DNA of 62,463 bases, counting the filler. It is 7 parts of 7 records of this genome, joined end to end, with 100 filler letters (N's around TTAATTAATTAA, not from the genome) between each part and the next. Parts side by side here need not be neighbours in the genome. Positions count along the whole stretch, not along the records: positions 42,226 to 51,348 come from SRR31156797_70177; 6 more parts are not named here. One strand, written 5' to 3'. The notes under the pieces were generated by a model. The model searched no databases and was not told where the DNA came from. It was given only the letters and a program-made list of their open reading frames with translations. Both the position numbers and the translations under genes were made by a program. Position 1 is the first letter of the stretch. Each line of letters begins with the position of its first letter. Below are positions 12,377-57,009 of this stretch, in pieces.

Positions 12377-12476
12377 NNNNNNNNNNNNNNNNNNNNNNNN
12401 NNNNNNNNNNNNNNNNNNNNTTAATTAATTAANNNNNNNNNNNNNNNNNNNNNNNNNNNNNNNNNNNNNNNNNNNN
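12377..12476. other. artificial contig spacer
   Basis: 100 nt of N with a central TTAATTAATTAA (stops in all six frames). Confidence 0.99.
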
Positions 12477-24446: not shown

Positions 24447-24546
24447 NNNNNNNNNNNNNNNNNNNNNNNNNNNNNNNNNNNNNNNNNNNNTTAATTAATT
24501 AANNNNNNNNNNNNNNNNNNNNNNNNNNNNNNNNNNNNNNNNNNNN
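24447..24546. other. artificial contig spacer
   Basis: N-run + TTAATTAATTAA + N-run. Confidence 0.99.
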
Positions 24547-33864: not shown

Positions 33865-33964
33865 NNNNNNNNNNNNNNNNNNNNNNNNNNNNNNNNNNNN
33901 NNNNNNNNTTAATTAATTAANNNNNNNNNNNNNNNNNNNNNNNNNNNNNNNNNNNNNNNNNNNN
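33865..33964. other. artificial contig spacer
   Basis: N-run + TTAATTAATTAA + N-run. Confidence 0.99.
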
Positions 33965-41380: not shown

Positions 41381-42125
41381 TTAACTCTTAGCTACTTCAA
41401 CTCTATTTCTTCCACCTTTTTTAGCTTCATATAACGCATCATCAGCTATTTTATAAATATCATAACTACTTTTTATATCTTTTCCATTTGCTGTATATAA
41501 TCCACATGAAATTGTTATAAAAGTGCTTGCATTATTATACTTATGTTCTATCTTTAAACTCTCTATTTCCTGTCTAACTAACTCTGCAAAATGAGATGCA
41601 CTATTTAAGCTATTTGATTGAAAAAGAATTGCAAATTCTTCCCCACCTATTCTAAATGGAATATCAGATGAACGCTTACATAAACTGTTAACTTTTTTTC
41701 CTATTGCAATTAAAACCTCATCCCCATTTTGATGACCGTAGTTATCATTGTATTGTTTAAAATTATCAACATCAAAAATTAAAAAGCCAAACCATTCATT
41801 TGTTCTTTTAATCCTATTTATTTCTTGTTCGAAAATTATATTAAAATGCCGTTTGTTATATAAAGTTGTCAATTCATCAGTAATAGACAAAGTTTCTATT
41901 CTTTTTTTATCAGTAATATCACTTCTTATTGAACGATAGCCTGTGATTTCACCATATTTATTGATATCTGGTGTAATAGTAGTATGAACCCAATAACTTT
42001 GTCCATTCTTATTTTTATTTTTTATTTCACCTACCCAGATATGTCCACTTTTTATTGTTTCCCACATATCTTTAAAAACATCAGGTGACATATCTTCATG
42101 TCTTACAATACTATGAGGTTTGCCT
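41381..42125 (-). CDS. PAS-GGDEF diguanylate cyclase, 5' truncated
   Basis: GKPHSIVRHEDM PAS motif, DVDNFK, RSSD I-site, GGEEF, AKKGGRN. Confidence 0.92.
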
Positions 42126-42225
42126 NNNNNNNNNNNNNNNNNNNNNNNNNNNNNNNNNNNNNNNNNNNNTTAATTAATTAANNNNNNNNNNNNNNNNNNN
42201 NNNNNNNNNNNNNNNNNNNNNNNNN
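42126..42225. other. artificial contig spacer
   Basis: N-run + TTAATTAATTAA + N-run. Confidence 0.99.
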
Positions 42226-42440
42226 AAAACGGCTGCAGCAATAACAACAACAGCAACAACTATTATAATTACTGTTGTGTTTGAGCCCGAAGCTTGTTCA
42301 ACATCTGTTAATAAATCTTCCTCCATGTACGAACTGTCTTGAGCACCAAGGTTATCAATATAAGTTCCTTGGTCCTGAGCCATTAATAAAGTTGGTAAGC
42401 TCATGATAAACAGTCCGATCATTGCAATTACTCTTTTCAT
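42226..42440 (-). CDS. small protein with signal peptide, acidic linker and TM helix; 3' truncated
   Basis: MKRVIAMIGLFIMSLPTLLMA-QDQG...SGSNTT-VIIIVVAVVVIAAAV. Confidence 0.7.
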
Positions 42441-42463
42441 CTCTAAAAACTTTTAAATTCTAC

Positions 42464-44407
42464 TTAATCTATTTCTAATTTCTCTTTTACTTTTTTTAAA
42501 AGTGGTGCTGCATTTTTGTAACGGGGATTTACTTTAATCAAATTCCGAAGCGCAAGATAGCTTTTTTTGTAATCTTGTTGATTAAAAAACTTTTGTGCTT
42601 CAAGTAAATAAAACGGTTCGTAATACGGATGTATTGTTCTTCCCTGACTTATCAAAGTTTCGCATTCGTCAAATTCATTTTGTGCCAATTTTAAATTTGC
42701 CAGGTTTACATACAGCCAAACATTATTTGGATCTTTTTTTATTTCGTCTTTTAACAAACGTTCTGCTTCATTCCAATTTCTCTTTTTTAAAGTATTTATG
42801 GCATTTAAATCCTGTTTGTTATCTCGTTTAAGTACCACTACCAAAGGATTTCCTTTATGATAAAATGTTTGTACAACCTTACTTGGGTGCCACTTGTTAT
42901 TTTTAAGTAAGTACGGGTGAATATAATTCACACCAAAAAGCGCATAATCCCAATCGGCCGAACTTCTTTCCAGGTAACGTGTATATTTGAAATCTACATT
43001 GGGTGTTTTATCAAAATAGTTTGGCAAATTACAATTCATGGCAACCACAGCCTTTTCTTCTCCAATTTCAGCAAGCAAATAATCGCTTGCCTCCTTTATT
43101 CCATGAAAGTAGTAGTCGTATTCAAAGTTGCTCCAGGCTGCTTTATTTCCTCCTGAAATTGTATTAAAGTAAACGTAATCAACCGGAAATGTTTTTGCCT
43201 GATGTTGAAAAGGAAGAAACATTAATGCAAAGAATAAAATAGAGGCAGGTAACTTAATAAACTTTTTTGATTTGGAATTGAATAACTCAAAAAATCCGAG
43301 TATTGCCAAAACAGTAAAAACAGGAATTACAAAAAGCATTTGGCGCAATCCACTATACAAATTCGATCCAATTGCTATTACATAAACAATGGGGAATAAC
43401 AGAGTAAAAAAGGCGAACAACTCAATTAAGAGTTGTTCGCTTAAAGGTCTAGAAAACTTATAGGTTAAAAAGGCTATAAAATATATGAACCCGAGAAGTA
43501 TAAACTCCGGGGTTGATATCAGAATCCATTTTATCAGGTAATTCCACGGAAGGATTGAACTCCAGATTACCTGACCTTCAAAAACTTGCTTAATACTTAC
43601 TTTGTAATGCTCCATTACCGAAAGACTTTCAAATGGATGACGCACCACGTCCTGCAAGGCATAGGGCCAGAATAGTAATCCCGCAAAATAACCAAGGGAA
43701 GCTATTAAAAATCCCTGGCCCAATAACCTTACAAAACAAGATTTAGTTGAAACGATATATTTAAGTAAAAAAGGCTTCAAAATTGAAGAAGCAACCAGTG
43801 CCAAACCCAGGTAGGCAAACAGGATTAGTCCGCCAATACGTACCGAACAGGTAAAGGCTATTGCCAATGCCAAATAAATTGCAGTTGTCCATTTGGGGTG
43901 GGGGAGCTGTTTTATAAATCTTATAATAAAATAAATACCAGCGATGTAACCTGTGGCAAAAGGAATGTCTTTCAGATTGCCAAAGGCCTGGCCAAACAAT
44001 CGTGGCGAAAGCATTAGCGCAATAACGGTAAGGAATGAGATCCAATACGATCCACCTAATTCCTTTCCCAGCAATCCGGCAAATACCAATAACATGAAAA
44101 AGAAAAATGCACCGGTAAAGTGTCTGGTTAAGAATTCTTTTTCAATAGTAAAAGCACGATTAATTAGTGCAGTAAAGTTATCTACCGATTGACCGTAGTA
44201 TTGAAGGTTGTCAGGAGAGTCGAGGCATGAGCCGTCTTCACCACCTGTAAAATACCAGTTTACCACTTTTTTAGCGTGTGGGTAGTGCAACATTTCGTCG
44301 ACATTAACAGCTGCTTTTGGGGCCAGAAATGCCAGAATTATTGCTGCAAGAACCAAGCTGGCAACAAAGGCATTTCGTGCTGTTATTATGTCAACGTATT
44401 TATTCAT
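42464..44407 (-). CDS. GT-C (ArnT/PMT-like) membrane glycosyltransferase with C-terminal TPR
   Basis: VDE motif after TM1, NLKDIPFA, many TM helices, DYY, TPR-like C-terminus (DPNNVWLYVNLA). Confidence 0.8.
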   Translation of the reverse strand: MNKYVDIITARNAFVASLVLAAIILAFLAPKAAVNVDEMLHYPHAKKVVNWYFTGGEDGSCLDSPDNLQYYGQSVDNFTALINRAFTIEKEFLTRHFTGAFFFFMLLVFAGLLGKELGGSYWISFLTVIALMLSPRLFGQAFGNLKDIPFATGYIAGIYFIIRFIKQLPHPKWTTAIYLALAIAFTCSVRIGGLILFAYLGLALVASSILKPFLLKYIVSTKSCFVRLLGQGFLIASLGYFAGLLFWPYALQDVVRHPFESLSVMEHYKVSIKQVFEGQVIWSSILPWNYLIKWILISTPEFILLGFIYFIAFLTYKFSRPLSEQLLIELFAFFTLLFPIVYVIAIGSNLYSGLRQMLFVIPVFTVLAILGFFELFNSKSKKFIKLPASILFFALMFLPFQHQAKTFPVDYVYFNTISGGNKAAWSNFEYDYYFHGIKEASDYLLAEIGEEKAVVAMNCNLPNYFDKTPNVDFKYTRYLERSSADWDYALFGVNYIHPYLLKNNKWHPSKVVQTFYHKGNPLVVVLKRDNKQDLNAINTLKKRNWNEAERLLKDEIKKDPNNVWLYVNLANLKLAQNEFDECETLISQGRTIHPYYEPFYLLEAQKFFNQQDYKKSYLALRNLIKVNPRYKNAAPLLKKVKEKLEID

Positions 44408-45314
44408 AAATTTCTTTAATCAAATAAGTGGGACGTTTCTGAACCTCTTTGTATATGCGATAAATATATTCTCCAATTAGTCCCAAAAAGGTGAGCTGAA
44501 CTGATCCAAAAAAACTGATGGCCATAAATGTGGAAGACCAGCCAAACGGAGCTAGTCCGGTGAATTTTGATGCCAAAGTATAGACAATTGCAAAGAGAAA
44601 TACCACTACTCCCAAAAGCCCAAGGTACAAACAGGCTTTAATTGGCCATTTGGAGAAGGAATAAATGGCATCGGCAGCCAATGCAAAAAGCTTTTTATGA
44701 CTCATTTTGGCTTGCCCCATGGTTCTTTCAGGACGGTCGAATTCCACTGTTTCATGCTGAAATCCAATAAAATTACGGATCCCGGGGAAATAGCGGTTTT
44801 GTTCGTTAAACTTTAAAATGGCATCAACTGCCCGCCGGCTTAAGATGCAAAAGTTTCCGGCTTGTTCCAGTTGCTCCTCAACCGAAACGTTTCTGAAAAC
44901 TTTATGGAAAATGTTGATGTAGAGACGTTTGCTGATTCGTTCTCCTCTTTTGCTTCGAACAGCCGAAACAACGTCTGCTTTTGATGATTTCATTTTAGAA
45001 TACAACTGGCTAATAACTGCAGGAGGATCTTGCAGGTCGCCATCCATTACTACAACATAATCGCCAGATGTGTGGTCCATTCCGGCGGCCAGGGCAGCCT
45101 GTAACCCAAAGTTGCGGGATAAGGAAATTATTCTTAGCTCCTTCTTTTCTGTTTTTTGTTGCAAAAGCCTGTCCAGGGTATTATCTGTGCTTCCGTCGTC
45201 AACACACACTACTTCGAAAGGCTTGCCAATGGCCTGCATACTTTGATGAACCTGACTCAAAAGGTCAGGAACTAAAGCACTTTCGTTGTATAATGGTATT
45301 ACTACGGAAATCAT
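44400..45314 (-). CDS. GT2 polyprenol-phosphate glycosyltransferase (GtrB/ArnC-like)
   Basis: SVVIPLYNE, VDDGSTD, SRNFG, MDGDLQDPP, two C-terminal TMs, IGEYI, RPTY. Confidence 0.92.
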   Translation of the reverse strand: MISVVIPLYNESALVPDLLSQVHQSMQAIGKPFEVVCVDDGSTDNTLDRLLQQKTEKKELRIISLSRNFGLQAALAAGMDHTSGDYVVVMDGDLQDPPAVISQLYSKMKSSKADVVSAVRSKRGERISKRLYINIFHKVFRNVSVEEQLEQAGNFCILSRRAVDAILKFNEQNRYFPGIRNFIGFQHETVEFDRPERTMGQAKMSHKKLFALAADAIYSFSKWPIKACLYLGLLGVVVFLFAIVYTLASKFTGLAPFGWSSTFMAISFFGSVQLTFLGLIGEYIYRIYKEVQKRPTYLIKEIYE

Positions 45315-45323
45315 AGATTAATT

Positions 45324-46667
45324 TTAAGTGTTATGTTGTATACCGGGAACCGGAACCGGGAATTCCATATCAACAGGTCCCATTTCGTATTTATCCGGCC
45401 CAAGTTTCATATTCGAAGTCATCATCTCTTCCCAACTAACTTTTTGTCCGGTGTAGGCAGCTGTTCTTCCCATAATTGCCGTGAGGGTTGATACCGCAGT
45501 GCGGTGTGCCTCTACAATCGGTTTGTTGGTTCGTATGGATGTTACTAAGTGAATGTGTTCCTGGATATAAGGCGAAACTGAAACAACACCCGTTGAACGA
45601 CCATCTTTATTCTTTGGGTATTCATAGGTCCATTTTACCGAACCGTCGTGATTAAAAATGGTGTTTTTACAGTTGGTGTATCCTTCAGTTCCAACAACAA
45701 ATTCTCCCAGCTGGTTGGCACATCCGTCCATTTGGCGCGAGAAACTGTGTGACGAAATGCCGTTTCCAAAATCAAAGTCGATGCTAAAGAAATCGTACTG
45801 ATCGCCGGTTAATCGGTGGTGGCGACCTCCAAATCCAACGGCAGTTTCAGGGTGTTTACCCATAAACCAGTTTACAATATCAATGTTGTGAACGTGTGTA
45901 TCAAGAATATGGTCGCCACATAACCAGCAGAAATTATTCCAGTTACGCAACATATATTCCATATCGCTCCAGCCTTCTTCTCGTGTGCGAAACCAAACAT
46001 GTGACTGCATCCAGAAAGCTTTGGCCGAAACGATATCTCCGATAGCACCACCTGCCACTTGGCGGTAAGTTTCAACATAATCGCGCTGATGACGGCGTTG
46101 TGTTCCGGTAATTACACTTAATCCAATATTTTCTGCCTTTTTGGCTGTTGCCATAATTTGGCGTGCACCAACCGGATCAACACAAACAGGTTTTTCCAGA
46201 AATACATGTTTCTTGGCCTGAACTGCTGCATCAAAATGCATGGGGCGGAAATGAGGAGGTGTGGCTAAAATTACTACATCCAAATCAACTTCAAGTAGTT
46301 GTTTATAGGCATCAAATCCCCAAAAACAATTCTTTTCAGTAACCTCAACTCTTTGTTTTAATAGTTTATTTCTGCAATCCCAAACTTTATCTTCAAAAAC
46401 ATCGGCAAGGGCTACCAGGTGCAGGTCGTGTCCTGCAGCTAAAAAGTTAAGGGCAGCACCAGTACCGCGATTACCGCAACCTACCAATCCTGCTCTTAGT
46501 TTTTTCCCGTCTGGAGCCTGATCCAGTAAGGGGGGGAATTCATAATCAACTTCTTTTAAGGTGCCCTTTTTGCAAGAGTTTAAAGCACTCACCCCAATGA
46601 CACCGGCAGCACCAATAAGTGCCGATTTCTCCAGGAAATTTCTGCGTGATAGTTGATTTTTATCCAT
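45324..46667 (-). CDS. Tat-exported (lipo)protein, Gfo/Idh/MocA oxidoreductase
   Basis: SRRNFL, LNSC lipobox, GCGNRG, ATPPHFRP, EKP, GTQRRH, HNID. Confidence 0.92.
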   Translation of the reverse strand: MDKNQLSRRNFLEKSALIGAAGVIGVSALNSCKKGTLKEVDYEFPPLLDQAPDGKKLRAGLVGCGNRGTGAALNFLAAGHDLHLVALADVFEDKVWDCRNKLLKQRVEVTEKNCFWGFDAYKQLLEVDLDVVILATPPHFRPMHFDAAVQAKKHVFLEKPVCVDPVGARQIMATAKKAENIGLSVITGTQRRHQRDYVETYRQVAGGAIGDIVSAKAFWMQSHVWFRTREEGWSDMEYMLRNWNNFCWLCGDHILDTHVHNIDIVNWFMGKHPETAVGFGGRHHRLTGDQYDFFSIDFDFGNGISSHSFSRQMDGCANQLGEFVVGTEGYTNCKNTIFNHDGSVKWTYEYPKNKDGRSTGVVSVSPYIQEHIHLVTSIRTNKPIVEAHRTAVSTLTAIMGRTAAYTGQKVSWEEMMTSNMKLGPDKYEMGPVDMEFPVPVPGIQHNT

Positions 46668-46672
46668 AGTAT

Positions 46673-48193
46673 TTAGTTTTTTTCAGCATTAAACATATCT
46701 TCATCGTACTCGCAAACTACCCTGAATCCAACACTTTTTGTATCAGAATACCACCAAATGCTTTTGGGGATTTGCGGATCGGTAACCAACCAGGCTTCTG
46801 TTCTGGTAAAATCACGTCGGGCAACCCTGAGGTCTTTGGGTGTATTTTTAAACGAACCTCCCCGAACCACGTGTTCCATTCCGTTTCTTGGGCCTCGTGG
46901 ATTCCGCACAACACCCTTTGGGTATTTTCCATACACTTTCGGATCGTAAAAATCGAGACAGAACTCGGCAACATTTCCCAACATATTTTTTAGACCATAA
47001 GGATTGGTCTCAATGTTTTCCGGTGCCTGTGTTTTATTCGAACTATTATCGTAATAAACAACATACCTGTTTATTATTTCTTTATTGCTGCCGAATAATT
47101 TTTTTAAGAACCCATCAGCTTCAAAATCTTTAGGCGATCCTTCAAAGAAATAAGGAGTTTGAGTTCCTCCGCGAGCGGCATATTCCCATTCAGCTTCGGT
47201 GGGTAACCGGTATTTCTTCCCAGTTACCTGACTTAGCCAGCGGCAATACGTTTGTGCCGCATGATGACTCATCGTAATGGCAGGATTGCTGCCTTTGCCC
47301 CAGCCTTGATCGGGTGCTCCCCAGGGAGGTGTAGGCCCCGAGATACCATCTACCTCTTCATTAATTTCTACCGCTTCTTTTCGACCTTGAGATCCTGTAG
47401 CTGCAAAAAAGGCCAGGTATTCATCCCAGGAGACTTCAATTTCTGCCATCCAGAAATTATCAACAAGAACATCTCTCACCGGTCCTTCATCTCTGTGTCG
47501 ATAAGATTCATCGGCCAGACTTCCCATTTTAAATTGTCCACCTGGTATTGCAATCATTTTAAATGATACTGCAGTCCCCGGAATTTTTTCACTAAATGAT
47601 TTGAATTCTGAAATCGTTGTTGCTTCTGCAAAAATCTCCTTTGGTTCTGTATCTTCTTCCTCAACCAGCAATGTTGTTTCTCCTCTGTAATGACCGGTAT
47701 TATGATGGCACTGCAAACACGAGTTATTCTCAGGATCGCGAATGTATTTTATATGTTGCTGACACCCTTGAGCACTTAAGGTAGACGGAAACATATTAGT
47801 GTGGCATTTTAAACATCCATCCTCGTATACAAAACGTTGTGCTGTTTCAGCTGATCTTTTGGCAGCCCAGTCAATTTCTTCAATATCCATGGTTAGGTAT
47901 GCATACAAGTCATGAAAACCGTGGTAAGCCTTTCTTGTTAGAAAATGCATCGTTTGATCTTCGGGCGGTAAATGACAATCTACACAATCTGCCGAAACAC
48001 CGCTTGGTGTGTTATGGTGTGGTGAAAGCTTGTAACTCGCATCGGCGTGTGGGTGAACATGGCATGAATTACAGAAGTCGTTTGATGAAGTGTAGTGTAT
48101 TGTTTTATTGAACAAAAACAAAAGAGCAATAACGCTCAGTCCTCCGGCTACAAAAATCAGGTAGTGTTTTCGTTTAATTGTTTTACCAGTCAT
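46673..48193 (-). CDS. NrfH/NapC-type tetrahaem cytochrome c fused to an FGE-sulfatase (SUMF1-fold) domain
   Basis: N-terminal TM and four CxxCH motifs (CNSCH, CVDCH, CLKCH, CLQCH), then FKMGS, RLPTEAEWEYAARGG, NPYGL, GNVAE, RGGS and GFRVV. Confidence 0.9.
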   Translation of the reverse strand: MTGKTIKRKHYLIFVAGGLSVIALLFLFNKTIHYTSSNDFCNSCHVHPHADASYKLSPHHNTPSGVSADCVDCHLPPEDQTMHFLTRKAYHGFHDLYAYLTMDIEEIDWAAKRSAETAQRFVYEDGCLKCHTNMFPSTLSAQGCQQHIKYIRDPENNSCLQCHHNTGHYRGETTLLVEEEDTEPKEIFAEATTISEFKSFSEKIPGTAVSFKMIAIPGGQFKMGSLADESYRHRDEGPVRDVLVDNFWMAEIEVSWDEYLAFFAATGSQGRKEAVEINEEVDGISGPTPPWGAPDQGWGKGSNPAITMSHHAAQTYCRWLSQVTGKKYRLPTEAEWEYAARGGTQTPYFFEGSPKDFEADGFLKKLFGSNKEIINRYVVYYDNSSNKTQAPENIETNPYGLKNMLGNVAEFCLDFYDPKVYGKYPKGVVRNPRGPRNGMEHVVRGGSFKNTPKDLRVARRDFTRTEAWLVTDPQIPKSIWWYSDTKSVGFRVVCEYDEDMFNAEKN

Positions 48194-48374
48194 TCTAAAT
48201 CTATTTGAACAACAATATTACCCGCGTGCAATTAGTTGTAACTTAACATTGTTGATAAGAACTACTTAACGGCATCTTAATATTATATTAATTAATTTAG
48301 TAAGTGGCTGAAATAAAAATAGATAACTAAATAATAAATTTCGCTAAAAAAAATTGTTTTATCTTTAAATTTAA

Positions 48375-48382
48375 TATATTTG
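48375..48382 (+). promoter_or_regulatory. Bacteroidota -7 promoter element
   Basis: TATATTTG matches TAnnTTTG, about 60 nt before ATG 48442, with a TTG about 20 nt upstream. Confidence 0.45.
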
Positions 48383-48441
48383 AAGCTAAAATAATATCAA
48401 ATTAAGAGTATATCTTGCTCTGTTCGAAGAGGGATTGAGAG

Positions 48442-50949
48442 ATGCGAATTGTAAAATTTATTTTGGTTTTTGTTTTGGGAATAACCTCCGTTTTAAAAAC
48501 CCATGCTTTGGATTTTGCAGACAACTCGTTTCTAATTGCAAAAGTAAATTCAACAGAATATCGGAGCAATCGGCTTTGGAATTTTTTACAGGAAAATAAT
48601 TGGTCGGGTATTGAGCTCGATCTGGACTTTGACACCCTAAATAACAACGCTTTTGTTCGAAACAGCAGGTTGCCATTTGCCGATGTATTAATAAAGGTTG
48701 AAGAGTTAATTGATAAAAACGATTCAAAAATATTTCCTGTATTTATTAATTATTCGGGAGACGTAGAACTCCTTGATTCAATCATAAATGCCTCGGCAAT
48801 ATCGACAAGGATATTTTATTTACCACAAGGTGAAAGGTGGCCATCAAATGAATACCTGGTTCAGGCAAATCGACGGGTAATTTTTTTTATTGAAGGGGAG
48901 ATTGAACATCAAAGCCGGATTCTTCATCACACCGATAATTATGCCTTGCAATTGGGAGCAAGCCGGATTACCCCAAATTCTGTTATATTAAGTGCTGAAT
49001 CAAATATCAATAAAGAACTATTTAAGGTTACTGATTTTCACCATTTACCAACCGGTGTGTCTACTTCGAAGATCAATAGTAACATGTATCCGGATTATAT
49101 TAATTTTTTGCTTGATAGTTGGACAAAGTACGGGAAAAAACCAAATTTTATTTCTGTTGGAAACAGTATATTCAACTTTAGTTTTATAATAAGCCAACTT
49201 AATTCTTTCGAGGTTATAAAAGGGCAGGTTCGAACATCCGGAAAGAATCTTGACCGTGTGTACTGGCGAAATGCAGAAACACTAATTACTGGTGGTAAAT
49301 TTAGTTTTCCTATACGCGGAGGAGATGAAATGATCTTAACTCCTTTTGTGCCAGGCTATAGTTTAACTCCGTCGCAACTCATTATTACAGCTGAAATGAC
49401 CGTACCCGAACATTATTCAATAATGGCTCATCCACTCAACCTGAATCAGGGACTTGTTGCAAGTTTTCATTTCGAGAATGATTTAGTGGACGTTGTAAAT
49501 CCCACCAGAAGTTTTGATGGAAATGCATATTCTTTTAGTCAGGACATTGAAAGGGGGACAGTATTAAGGCTTCCGGAAAATGCCAATGTAAATTTAGGAG
49601 AACCATCACTGTATAACTTTCCGAATAGTAGTTTTACAGTTAGTTGTTACGTGAAGTTTACAGATATATTAGAATATGGCGATAACGCGATTCTTGGAAA
49701 CGATGAAGAAGGTTATCGACGCGGAATGCATTTGGTTTTACGATCTGGTCATCCATATTTTGGTTTATGGGCCAACGATTTTATGTCAACGGAAATAATA
49801 GAGCCTAACATCTGGTATCATTTAACCTGGCGGTATATTATTGAAACGGGGCAACAGGCCATTTTTGTTAATGGCCAGTATAGTGGTGGATCAGATAGCC
49901 ATCCACCCTATTCGGGAACAAGCGATATTCATATCGGCAGTGCCTTATCGGGTGGGGCGAGTTTACGAGGCTATATCGATAATTTACATATTTGGAACAG
50001 ACCTTTGGGTAATGAAGAAATAAGCAGAATTGCCGTTGATGAGGAAATTATTATTGAACAACCGGAGGAGGAATTTAAGCTGTTCTCCATGAAAAATTTG
50101 GTAATACTGTTGGGTGTATTTGCAGGATTAAGTGTTTTTCTAATTATTGTTTTGCTGCTAAAAGCAAATGCAAAGAAAAATTCTATATTGTTAAACAAGC
50201 CCGAAACGCCTACCAAAAATCAGATACAGTTGTTTGGCGAATTTAAAGCGATTAACAATTCGAATGAAGATGTATCAGATTTGTTTACTCCAAAAGTAAA
50301 AGAATTGTTTATTTATACTTTGGTTGTCAATTTGAGAAACAGAATTGGTGCACCTATTGCTGAAGTTAACGAAACGCTTTGGCATGGTATAGACTCAAAG
50401 AAAGTTGCAAATAACCGTTCAGTAACCCTAAATAAATTGCGAAAAATCCTTGGTAATTTTGATAAAATAGAGATAACCTCTGCCAATGGATATCTTCAAA
50501 TGAAAATGTCGGAAACTTTTTTTTGCGATTATGTTGAAGCGTATCATCTGTGCCAGATCTCAGAAGGAATGTCGCGTGAGCAGTTACAGTTATTCTTTCA
50601 TTTGGTTAAAAAAGGTCGTCTTCTTAAAGGGACAGATTGGCTCTGGTTGGATGATATCAGAGGATTTACGGGGAACCAGGTAATTGATAACCTGTTAAAA
50701 CTGGCATCTTCTTATAAGAAAGAGAATAAACCAAAGGAGGTGGAAAAAGTGGCACAACGAATTCTTGATTACGACGATTTGAATGAAGAAGCTATATTTC
50801 TTCAGATCTGGGCTCTTCAAAAGGCTAATAATTCGCATATGGCCAGGTTTTACTTCAACTCATTCTGTTCAAAATATGAAAAAAATATGGGGGAAGTATT
50901 TCGGATGAATTTTAGTGAGTTCGCCGGGTATTATTCAGAGAGGCTATAG
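48442..50949 (+). CDS. one-component transmembrane regulator: periplasmic PLC-like and LamG domains, TM, cytoplasmic wHTH/BTAD-like
   Basis: Signal peptide; IELDL; LamG (SFTVS, WYHL, GYIDNLHIWNRPL); one TM; IQLFGEF, LW, VTLNKLRK and DDLNEEA, typical of SARP-like C-termini. Confidence 0.75.
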   Translation: MRIVKFILVFVLGITSVLKTHALDFADNSFLIAKVNSTEYRSNRLWNFLQENNWSGIELDLDFDTLNNNAFVRNSRLPFADVLIKVEELIDKNDSKIFPVFINYSGDVELLDSIINASAISTRIFYLPQGERWPSNEYLVQANRRVIFFIEGEIEHQSRILHHTDNYALQLGASRITPNSVILSAESNINKELFKVTDFHHLPTGVSTSKINSNMYPDYINFLLDSWTKYGKKPNFISVGNSIFNFSFIISQLNSFEVIKGQVRTSGKNLDRVYWRNAETLITGGKFSFPIRGGDEMILTPFVPGYSLTPSQLIITAEMTVPEHYSIMAHPLNLNQGLVASFHFENDLVDVVNPTRSFDGNAYSFSQDIERGTVLRLPENANVNLGEPSLYNFPNSSFTVSCYVKFTDILEYGDNAILGNDEEGYRRGMHLVLRSGHPYFGLWANDFMSTEIIEPNIWYHLTWRYIIETGQQAIFVNGQYSGGSDSHPPYSGTSDIHIGSALSGGASLRGYIDNLHIWNRPLGNEEISRIAVDEEIIIEQPEEEFKLFSMKNLVILLGVFAGLSVFLIIVLLLKANAKKNSILLNKPETPTKNQIQLFGEFKAINNSNEDVSDLFTPKVKELFIYTLVVNLRNRIGAPIAEVNETLWHGIDSKKVANNRSVTLNKLRKILGNFDKIEITSANGYLQMKMSETFFCDYVEAYHLCQISEGMSREQLQLFFHLVKKGRLLKGTDWLWLDDIRGFTGNQVIDNLLKLASSYKKENKPKEVEKVAQRILDYDDLNEEAIFLQIWALQKANNSHMARFYFNSFCSKYEKNMGEVFRMNFSEFAGYYSERL

Positions 50950-51001
50950 AAGAAAAGGGCGGAACAAATCCACCCTCCTATAACTAATAAATGTTCATTC
51001 A

Positions 51002-51348
51002 TTATTTGTCAGCCTGTTCTAATTCAACAGAAAAATGTCGCATAATCGGGGCTTCATTTTTTATCCGATATCCGTGTTCAATATTTTCCCGTCTGTCAAA
51101 TATATTTTTTAAAGCTACTGCTACAACATCCATGTGGTTATTTGTATAAGTACGTCGTGGAATGGCTAAGCGCAACATTTCCAATTTAGGGTAGCGGTTT
51201 TCTCGTGTATCAGGATCGCGGTCAGCAAGCAGAGTCCCGATCTCTACCCCTCTTACTCCTGCTTCAAGATACAATTCGATGGCAAGGGTTTGCGCAATAT
51301 ATTCTTCTTTGGGTACATGGCTAAGGAATTTTTTAGCATCAACAAAAA
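51002..51348 (-). CDS. tnaA: tryptophanase, C-terminal fragment
   Basis: LYLEAGVRGVEIG, RLAIPRRTYT, and MRHF (His as in tryptophanase rather than Phe as in tyrosine phenol-lyase). Confidence 0.85.
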
Positions 51349-51448
51349 NNNNNNNNNNNNNNNNNNNNNNNNNNNNNNNNNNNNNNNNNNNNTTAATTAA
51401 TTAANNNNNNNNNNNNNNNNNNNNNNNNNNNNNNNNNNNNNNNNNNNN
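51349..51448. other. artificial contig spacer
   Basis: N-run + TTAATTAATTAA + N-run. Confidence 0.99.
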
Positions 51449-56909: not shown

Positions 56910-57009
56910 NNNNNNNNNNNNNNNNNNNNNNNNNNNNNNNNNNNNNNNNNNNNTTAATTAATTAANNNNNNNNNNNNNNNNNNNNNNNNNNNNNNNNNNN
57001 NNNNNNNNN
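56910..57009. other. artificial contig spacer
   Basis: N-run + TTAATTAATTAA + N-run. Confidence 0.99.

Follow-up and report, generated by a model that had tools for sequence, protein, structure and literature searches.

The window examined here, a stretch of 62,463 nt, carries on one of its contigs (42226-51348; 9123 bp, GC 0.39) a cluster of six conserved genes in which components of a periplasmic redox system lie next to those of a lipid-linked glycosylation system. Five open reading frames (ORFs) are found on the - strand, at 46673-48193, 45324-46667, 44400-45314, 42464-44407 and 42226-42440, with gaps of 5, 9, -8 and 23 nt between them; in this order they encode a fusion of a cytochrome with a domain of the formylglycine-generating enzyme (FGE) fold, a Gfo/Idh/MocA dehydrogenase exported by twin-arginine translocation (Tat), a family 2 glycosyltransferase (GT2), a glycosyltransferase of the GT-C fold with tetratricopeptide repeats (TPR), and a small membrane protein. 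The sixth gene (48442-50949, + strand) is divergent, lies 248 nt upstream of the cytochrome gene, and encodes a regulator whose DNA-binding region is of the Streptomyces antibiotic regulatory protein (SARP) type. The five same-strand genes and their gaps had been described in an initial annotation and are borne out by the ORF coordinates, and every domain named there (NapC/NrfH-type and FGE, Gfo/Idh/MocA and Tat, GT2, GT-C/TPR) is recovered by Pfam, NCBIfam or fold searches. The small membrane protein is present as annotated, albeit from a gene truncated by the contig end at 42226, and the five-gene set proves to be conserved, with the SARP-type regulator belonging to it as a further member. 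The tight spacing is no chance feature, as the same order is found again in dozens of other genomes, and the cluster is a genuine, operon-like unit from a Draconibacterium-like member of the Prolixibacteraceae, of the marine-sediment type.

The fusion protein (506 aa; 46673..48193, - strand) is membrane-anchored and joins a tetrahaem NapC/NirT-type cytochrome to a Cys-less FGE/SUMF1-fold domain. Its cytochrome module (residues 10-169; 47687..48166, - strand) matches the NapC/NirT family (PF03264) at 1.5e-24, with 87.1 bits against a cut-off of 24.1, and contains four CXXCH motifs, at residues 41, 70, 127 and 159, together with a single N-terminal hydrophobic segment (residues 9-32). The NCBIfam model for NrfH gives 4.4e-20 and 72.1 bits, under its cut-off of 134.2, and the curated napC_nirT (49.8 versus 310.6 bits) and TorC (58.6 versus 478.2 bits) models are similarly not reached; amongst solved structures the module matches NrfH (2j7a, 2.1e-5). 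Thus the fusion shares with the quinol dehydrogenases NrfH, CymA, NapC and TorC (tetrahaem, or pentahaem in the case of TorC) an N-terminal membrane helix, four CXXCH motifs within approximately 160 residues and a PF03264 match above the cut-off. It differs from them in falling under all of the curated NCBIfam equivalog cut-offs, in bearing a C-terminal FGE-fold domain, and in that it would work in the direction of quinone reduction.

The FGE-fold domain gives a Pfam FGE-sulfatase match over residues 212-461 (46811..47560, - strand; 2.1e-42, 146 bits) and runs on to approximately residue 495. Its PDB matches comprise FGE entries (1e-17 to 1e-19) and PvdO (4e-16), with an NCBIfam PvdO match (1.7e-23) that remains under the cut-off. 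Alignments to solved FGEs end at an RGGSF-K segment, and the window protein is Cys-free between residues 413 and 493, the next being Cys 494; across 83 sequences of the window-type (A-type) fusion, Cys does not rank among the top three residues at any of positions 447-470. The two catalytic, copper-binding Cys of FGE sit just after the conserved GGS segment and, with no Cys following RGGSF, this pair is missing from the fusion. The FGE-sulfatase fold is common to FGE/SUMF1, PvdO and the fusion, and PvdO is likewise periplasmic and without the catalytic Cys pair; the window domain is set apart from both by its fusion to a cytochrome, by always adjoining a Gfo/Idh/MocA gene, and by two motifs of its own, W..DPQ.P.S.WW and D..[ST]G[AP]T. 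The former (W468..DPQ.P.S.WW481) is invariant across the three groups compared, namely A-type fusions, other fusions and stand-alone FGE-like forms.

The latter appears in the window as D282-G-I-S-G-P-T288 (47330..47350, - strand) and resembles the covalent flavin mononucleotide (FMN) site [S/T]GA[S/T]. D282, G286 and T288 are retained in 83/83 A-type and 8/8 other fusions, for which the common motif is D-x-I-[ST]-G-[AP]-T; position 287 is A in 60 of the A-type sequences and P in 23, with the window having P. According to PMC8238504, ApbE flavinylates the [S/T]GA[S/T] motif at a modifiable Ser/Thr that faces the periplasm; the words FGE-sulfatase, Gfo and NapC are absent from its main text. 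An ApbE is encoded in 5/5 related genomes, away from the cluster (this and other genome-wide statements are drawn from the genomes of relatives). A flavin on the FGE domain would bridge the gap between a hydride donor and haems that take up single electrons.

The adjoining dehydrogenase (447 aa; 45324..46667, - strand) displays a Rossmann domain (PF01408, 55.2 bits) and a C-terminal domain (PF22725, 31.3 bits), both over their cut-offs, with a GCGNRG sequence at residue 63. A Tat signal is recognized at residues 6-26 (TIGR01409; 21.8 bits, over the cut-off of 16.7), and its R8 and R9 do not vary across 48 sequences; C32 comes after this signal, and the enzyme is probably lipid-anchored. Amongst solved structures it is closest to DgpA1 (1.3e-11) and to inositol dehydrogenases. 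The glucose-fructose oxidoreductase (GFOR) of Zymomonas (cited in PMC8121099), which is also a Tat-exported Gfo/Idh/MocA protein with bound NADP, is not among the PDB matches listed for the dehydrogenase at E <= 0.001, and differs in recycling its cofactor through a second sugar, without a cytochrome partner. A complex prediction for residues 33-447 of the dehydrogenase with residues 195-506 of the fusion (the FGE domain) returned a score of 0.00 with alignments not used, a result that counts neither for nor against binding.

Downstream of the redox pair, the GT2 (304 aa; 44400..45314, - strand) is of the polyprenol-phosphate glycosyltransferase type, with a PF00535 match of 6.6e-30 (104.7 bits), a DGD sequence at residue 91 and two C-terminal hydrophobic segments (residues 222-255 and 262-281). 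It aligns end to end with PgfS (240.3 bits versus a cut-off of 500) and ArnC (153.7 versus 529), in both cases under the cut-off. The multi-span GT-C protein that follows (647 aa; 42464..44407, - strand) includes an alpha/beta domain located in the periplasm and a TPR domain at its C-terminus. A model of this protein (predicted local distance difference test, pLDDT, 93.9) adopts the GT-C fold, and Foldseek matches it to STT3, ALG12, AglB, AftA, ArnT, DPY19, PglB and Pmt4 (E 1e-6 to 1e-4), with a probability of 1.00 for STT3, ALG12, AglB, ArnT and Pmt4. Structural VIA Z values are 22-25, with Pmt4/Pmt1 (22.9-23.7) tied with ALG12, AglB, STT3 and ArnT. D37, in the first periplasmic loop, is present in 59/59 GT-C sequences and E38 in 57/59; the Pfam PMT model gives 1.6e-4 and 21.7 bits against a cut-off of 22.7, PMT_2 reaches 23.8 versus 26.1 bits in a relative, and TPR matches at residues 541-604 are weak. 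E429, D431, Y432 and the W486-D487-Y488 triplet of the periplasmic domain are also invariant (59/59 sequences), the WDY triplet being reminiscent of the WWDYG motif of oligosaccharyltransferases, and both STT3 and AglB are amongst the tied best structural matches.

Known GT2 and GT-C pairs, such as Ppm1/Pmt, DPM1/PMT/TMTC, ArnC/ArnT, GtrB/GtrC and PgfS/PgfM, display the same arrangement of a GT2 with two C-terminal helices, followed by a GT-C with an invariant first-loop Asp, and the C-terminal TPRs of the window protein recall TMTC. The window pair differs from these in reaching no curated cut-off, in having no gene for a GtrA-type flippase, and in its predicted co-transcription with a redox pair. 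Frames of 930-990 aa amongst relatives had suggested GT2/GT-C fusion proteins; this was rejected, as the extra length consists of more TPR repeats (968 aa in locus L116 and 949 aa in L124) and the GT2 is a separate upstream gene.

With regard to the small type-I membrane protein, only its 5′ part (71 codons; 42226..42440, - strand) lies on the contig; the ORF call extends from 42174 to 42440, and the remainder translates as X. Its orthologues, of 78-90 aa, have a signal peptide at one end and a poly-Lys tail at the other; between these come a conserved acidic-aromatic motif, a spacer rich in Ser, Thr and Gly, and a membrane helix. The motif takes the form GTYIDNL..QDSSYM in 43 proteins, and in 8 it reads SIDDMDPVFY. 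The protein falls into no Pfam family, and the genes that come after its orthologues are unrelated. It is a plausible candidate for an acceptor or partner of the TPR-bearing GT-C.

The regulator (835 aa; 48442..50949, + strand) is a membrane-anchored one-component protein composed of a signal peptide, a periplasmic laminin G-like (LamG) region, one helix, and a cytoplasmic SARP-type DNA-binding region with a bacterial transcriptional activator domain (BTAD). Laminin_G_3 is matched at residues 382-528 (7.8e-18), and hydrophobic segments occupy residues 1-25 and 545-578. The C-terminal 252 aa (residues 584-835) are modelled with a pLDDT of 95.3, and Foldseek places them closest to EmbR (2fez, 8.7e-6) and AfsR (8k60_I, 9.6e-6), with template modelling (TM) scores of 0.65-0.69 over approximately 250 aligned columns. 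Pfam models for this region are not significant (Trans_reg_C 0.057 in one relative, TPR_6 0.012); the SARP identity was decided by the fold search. A profile of 37 regulator sequences, compared with the sequences of the PDB, matches only LamG/pentraxin domains. In a feature search the periplasmic part falls near clusters with PI-PLC_cat/PI-PLC_X and LamG domains (0.87; a lead only), and Pfam detects nothing in residues 23-381. ToxR and CadC represent a comparable kind of membrane one-component regulator; we know of no description of the present architecture, in which a signal peptide and some 520 periplasmic residues with LamG are joined by a helix to a cytoplasmic SARP.

Between the two divergent genes lies a putative operon promoter (48213..48293, - strand), made up of five direct repeats with a TTAA core and a TA...TTG box. 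The cores are located at 48291-88, 48280-77, 48268-66, 48246-43 and 48234-31, with spacings of 11, 11, 23 and 12 nt, and their core bases are conserved in 51-52 of 52 aligned divergent intergenic regions; the box (48220-48213), conserved along with them, is just upstream of the cytochrome gene. Given the typical features of SARP sites and of the -7 box in Bacteroidota, the repeats would be candidate SARP sites and the TA...TTG box a -7 element, marking the promoter of the operon. AfsR and EmbR, with which the regulator shares its C-terminal fold, similarly have direct repeats spaced by approximately 11 nt upstream of their target promoters, with the difference that the window SARP module is C-terminal to a signal peptide, an approximately 520-aa periplasmic LamG region and a helix.

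Scanning one genome per species identified 215 relatives of the cytochrome-FGE protein, and the best 80 loci were examined. These display 53-82% identity and derive from Draconibacterium, Maribellus, Mariniphaga, Sunxiuqinia, Gaoshiqia, Puteibacter and metagenome-assembled genomes of Bacteroidales. The dehydrogenase gene adjoins the cytochrome-FGE gene in 79/80 loci, the 80th being cut. Where at least 10 kb of downstream sequence was to hand, the GT2 is found in 54/57 loci, the GT-C in 56/57 and both together in 53/57; the four loci without both comprise three without the GT2, and a fourth in which the GT-C would fall past the end of the locus. The regulator is next to the cytochrome gene in 63 of the 68 loci with at least 3 kb upstream (divergent in 49, on the same strand in 14), and the small protein is found in 55/61 loci using strict criteria. 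Genes flanking the cluster vary from locus to locus. In 11 loci, a further 2.6-7.2 kb of genes lie between the dehydrogenase gene and the GT2, encoding ThuA, further Gfo/Idh/MocA proteins, 3-keto-disaccharide hydrolase (DUF1080), xylose-isomerase-like TIM barrels, a major facilitator superfamily (MFS) transporter and a cytosolic Gfo protein. Within an inner cytochrome clade of 59 tips these catabolic genes are gone and the transferases are retained.

Outside of the A-type loci the association takes another form. Each of five related genomes possesses a full-length second fusion of 52-54% identity accompanied by its own dehydrogenase, with no GT2, GT-C, regulator or small protein within approximately 9 kb on either side. 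The genes that flank the second-copy pairs (L081-L085 and L137) are unrelated ones, for instance a ComF-like gene, a TonB receptor and DUF4249. The non-A fusion loci number eight, namely those of the five B-type paralogues, of L137 and of two deeper-branching fusions, and the dehydrogenase is adjacent in 8/8. Amongst 401 genomes sampled from the phylum, the full fusion occurs in 3, and a stand-alone FGE-like protein (approximately 40% identity to residues 192-494) in approximately 35, with a dehydrogenase homologue adjacent in 25/27 of the stand-alone loci. Of 201 genomes sampled from the order, 33 contain a relative of the GT-C and 24 contain the cytochrome, the two being neighbours only in the four that have a window-type cytochrome.

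Phylogenetic trees agree with this distribution. The linked cytochromes group in a single clade (83 tips, support 0.999), as do the linked GT-Cs (42 tips, 0.88), which stand apart from 17 unlinked relatives. In L116 the unlinked GT-C comes after a GT2, in the company of genes for a DegT aminotransferase, an epimerase/dehydratase and a PglD-like acetyltransferase, and in L124 it adjoins a lipid A acyltransferase gene; these clusters resemble an Arn-like system that modifies the envelope with amino sugars. Amongst the unlinked GT-C loci that were fetched, 3-keto-sugar genes occur only in L131, which sits inside the linked clade. Two GT-Cs of the linked clade are without an adjacent cytochrome, one lying at a contig start and the other being that of genome G559, where orthologues of the GT2 and GT-C come after a complete 3-keto-glycoside cluster and the sole cytochrome pair lies on a different contig and belongs to the paralogous type; no DUF6377-type regulator was found near this cluster. 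The cytochrome-FGE (or FGE-like) protein and its dehydrogenase are therefore an old, self-sufficient core, to which the transferases, the small protein and the regulator were added once, in one clade.

Gene neighbourhood across Bacteroidota had been proposed alongside the initial annotation as a check of the pairing, and here the outcome is divided. Within the one clade the linkage holds, both transferases being kept in most orthologous loci rather than unlinked there, and the association is absent round the paralogous and stand-alone redox pairs. In the same manner, the pairing of dehydrogenase and cytochrome that was inferred from a single locus gains from their adjacency in A-type, non-A and stand-alone loci alike, and the transferases prove to be no general partner of the redox pair.

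The nearest described system is the 3-keto-glycoside pathway of Bacteroidota, represented by BT2156-BT2160 of B. thetaiotaomicron and AL1-AL5 of Alistipes; in the two reports (PMC8121099; bioRxiv 10.1101/2024.03.25.586180), the electron acceptor of the Tat-exported Gfo enzymes is left open, with one study proposing a second sugar and the other mentioning cytochromes. Like the window cluster, this pathway employs a Tat-exported Gfo/Idh/MocA enzyme thought to hold NAD(P) bound, and the deeper-branching relatives of the cluster share with it several helper genes (DUF1080 hydrolase, TIM-barrel enzymes and cytosolic Gfo). The window dehydrogenase, on the other hand, lies outside the BT_2158 family, its operon has no hydrolase or isomerase, and its regulator is SARP-type rather than SusR or DUF6377. 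Moreover, the published pathway regenerates its NAD through the reduction of a keto-sugar, whereas the window cluster has a cytochrome-FGE partner. The legend of a figure in bioRxiv 10.1101/2024.03.25.586180 lists, without comment, GT2 and GT39 genes on the Alistipes fosmid that bears AL1-AL5, and the arrangement in G559 fits this listing.

Our preferred interpretation, held tentatively and at somewhat less than an even chance, is that an NAD-type sugar dehydrogenase is wired through the Cys-less FGE domain and four haems to menaquinone, with a co-regulated glycosylation module alongside. According to this scheme, Tat would export the folded dehydrogenase with its NAD(P) bound, and the lipid anchor would keep it at the membrane, where it would oxidize a sugar or glycoside at one of its hydroxyls, the most likely product being a keto-sugar, as happens in 3-keto-glycoside pathways. 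The FGE-fold domain, unable to make formylglycine, would dock the dehydrogenase and relay electrons, possibly via FMN at T288, from where they would pass through the four haems to menaquinone, downhill from NAD(P)H. The regulator would sense a carbohydrate-like ligand in the periplasm and activate the operon at the TTAA repeats. In parallel, the GT2 would load a common sugar onto polyprenol phosphate and the GT-C would move it to a periplasmic acceptor, with the TPR domain helping in selection and the small membrane protein as the simplest candidate acceptor or partner. In our view the glycosylation module is an accessory to sugar oxidation, regulated together with it and probably outside the electron path. 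Two alternatives had been left side by side in the initial annotation, respiration of a sugar or glycoside and redox editing of an installed glycan. The presence of 3-keto-sugar catabolic genes between the modules of deeper-branching relatives favours the first over the second, as does the independence of the redox pair elsewhere.

A number of observations weigh against this interpretation. The proposed flavin site of the window reads SGPT, departing from [S/T]GA[S/T], stand-alone FGE-like forms carry R rather than Gly at position 286 (22/26), and ApbE is not adjacent to the cluster and serves other complexes. The dehydrogenase is far under every curated cut-off, with 36.5 versus 750 bits for BT_2158_fam (NF058561) and with IolG and others also missed by a wide margin, and no hydrolase, isomerase or transporter that could deal with a keto-sugar product is encoded in the window operon. 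As for the link between the modules, transferases are found in 0/8 non-A fusion loci, and a GT2 or GT-C in 0/20 stand-alone FGE-like loci (±9.5 kb), of which 18/20 have the dehydrogenase adjacent, so that the redox pair does not need them. Related GT-Cs, 17 in all, exist in other contexts, and three extended clusters (L038, L039 and L043) retain the GT-C and small protein without the GT2; their lipid-linked donor may come from another part of the genome. Comparison of A- with B-type proteins reveals no A-specific Ser/Thr-rich stretch in the cytochrome linker or the dehydrogenase N-terminus. Finally, the linkage, as examined in the best 80 of the 215 relatives, is of single origin, and inherited synteny may explain it.

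This last point leads to the suggestion that the cluster, inherited and co-regulated as a whole, houses two units with no relation to each other, the redox pair oxidizing a periplasmic sugar and the transferases carrying out an independent envelope glycosylation, with no substrate or product in common. The transferase-free redox pairs just described, the GT-C relatives found with unrelated genes and the single origin of the linkage are all as one would expect from such an arrangement, and we consider it a real, if lesser, possibility. It does less well with the retention of both modules in 53/57 loci, down to 53% identity for the cytochrome and approximately 30% for the GT-C, and with a linkage that has outlasted insertions and inversion of the regulator while the flanks changed. 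In G559 the transferase pair stays with sugar-oxidation genes even though the cytochrome pair is gone, and in the window the 9-nt and -8-nt gaps leave no space for a separate promoter. At the opposite extreme, the dehydrogenase might edit the glycan itself, acting on the polyprenol-phosphate sugar or on the sugar installed by the GT-C to yield a keto or epimerized form, with electrons leaving via the cytochrome to menaquinone. In mycobacteria, decaprenyl-phospho-ribose is oxidized before arabinosyl transfer by GT-C enzymes, which offers an analogue. The operon does unite a GT2 and a GT-C with a periplasmic dehydrogenase and a quinone-linked cytochrome, the 59-tip inner clade kept its transferases after losing the catabolic genes, and a regulator with PI-PLC-like and LamG resemblance (the lead noted above) could read a lipid-phosphate-sugar head group. 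Set against these are the catabolic set that deeper relatives carry between the modules (3-keto-disaccharide hydrolase, TIM-barrel, MFS and cytosolic reductase genes) and the redox pairs, paralogous and stand-alone, that have no transferase; in addition, the window operon contains neither a second reductase for epimerization nor an aminotransferase, and we know of no GT-C that transfers a keto-sugar. Redox editing is therefore regarded as doubtful. A more specific version, in which all parts act on one sugar, seems equally hard to favour: the GT-C would glycosylate the Ser/Thr-rich spacer of the small protein, with its TPR domain docking the acidic-aromatic motif, or else the sugar would stay lipid-linked, and the dehydrogenase would then oxidize that sugar and pass electrons through a covalent flavin and the haems to menaquinone. 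Were it true, this would amount to a respiration-coupled making of a keto- or epimerized sugar outside the cytoplasm, in parallel to the DprE1 step of mycobacterial arabinan synthesis and built from unrelated parts.

Alternatively, the glycosylation module might be dedicated to maturation of its neighbours, with the GT-C O-glycosylating the dehydrogenase tether, the linker of the cytochrome-FGE protein or the sensor domain of the regulator for stability. The PMT-like DE..HY motif in the first loop of the GT-C, a TPR domain of the peptide-binding kind and the fact that PgfS, from a protein-glycosylation system, is the best NCBIfam match of the GT2 would all be in keeping with a protein acceptor. 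The GT-C fold, however, cannot separate protein from lipid or glycan acceptors, the Z values being tied among ALG12, AglB, STT3, ArnT and Pmt, and no Ser/Thr-rich segment distinguishes the A-type proteins from B-type paralogues that have no transferases, making this an improbable explanation. Lastly, the strong FGE-sulfatase match and the FGE entries that head the PDB matches could be taken at face value, with the domain being a working formylglycine-generating or related thiol-oxidizing enzyme that is supplied by the cytochrome and acts in the maturation of a sulfatase-like target. Such a function is very unlikely indeed given the lack of Cys after RGGSF, a cluster without a sulfatase gene, and a constant neighbour that is instead a Gfo/Idh/MocA dehydrogenase.

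All of the parts are of known folds, and their arrangement is a new variation on periplasmic sugar oxidation. Literature searches returned no paper on the cytochrome-FGE fusion or on the combination of redox and glycosyltransferase genes, and the contention that no described pathway has this combination stands as far as those searches go, the GT2/GT39 listing of the Alistipes preprint aside. In a periplasm without free NAD, a cytochrome fused to a dead FGE fold beside a dehydrogenase is a concrete candidate for the missing re-oxidation link and, if this is correct, periplasmic sugar oxidation would be directly respiratory. One widespread clade of sediment Bacteroidales furthermore keeps this redox pair with a polyprenol-phosphate glycosylation pair and a tiny, conserved membrane protein. 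Should the modules share a substrate, they would constitute a new route of extracytoplasmic glycan chemistry. Should they not, the paired A-type and B-type copies within one cell still provide a natural handle on the redox pair, with the bare second copies serving as a natural control for the transferase-linked one. As cultured hosts exist (Draconibacterium, Maribellus, Mariniphaga and Gaoshiqia), genetic tests are possible.

As to the remainder of the window, it consists of seven contigs joined by six 100-nt linkers (44 N + TTAATTAATTAA + 44 N), at 12377-12476, 24447-24546, 33865-33964, 42126-42225, 51349-51448 and 56910-57009. The GC contents of the contigs are, in order, 0.59, 0.60, 0.60, 0.28, 0.39, 0.40 and 0.54, and the window looks like a concatenated assembly, probably from multiple organisms. 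Due to the linkers, genes on either side of one are not neighbours, as is the case for a GGDEF-like ORF at 41381-42091. Scans of the window for promoters (21 versus 25.2 ± 6.1) and terminators (10 versus 8.0 ± 3.4) gave totals at chance level. At 43413-43440 (- strand), within the GT-C coding region, a GC-rich hairpin of 11 bp precedes a run of T, and with the terminator-like total at chance it may be meaningless. At the other end of the cluster's contig lies the 3′ end of a tryptophanase gene (51002-51274, - strand), truncated by the contig boundary. A tryptophanase gene also adjoins the regulator in Draconibacterium sediminis (L006), and the contig is thus collinear with that genus.

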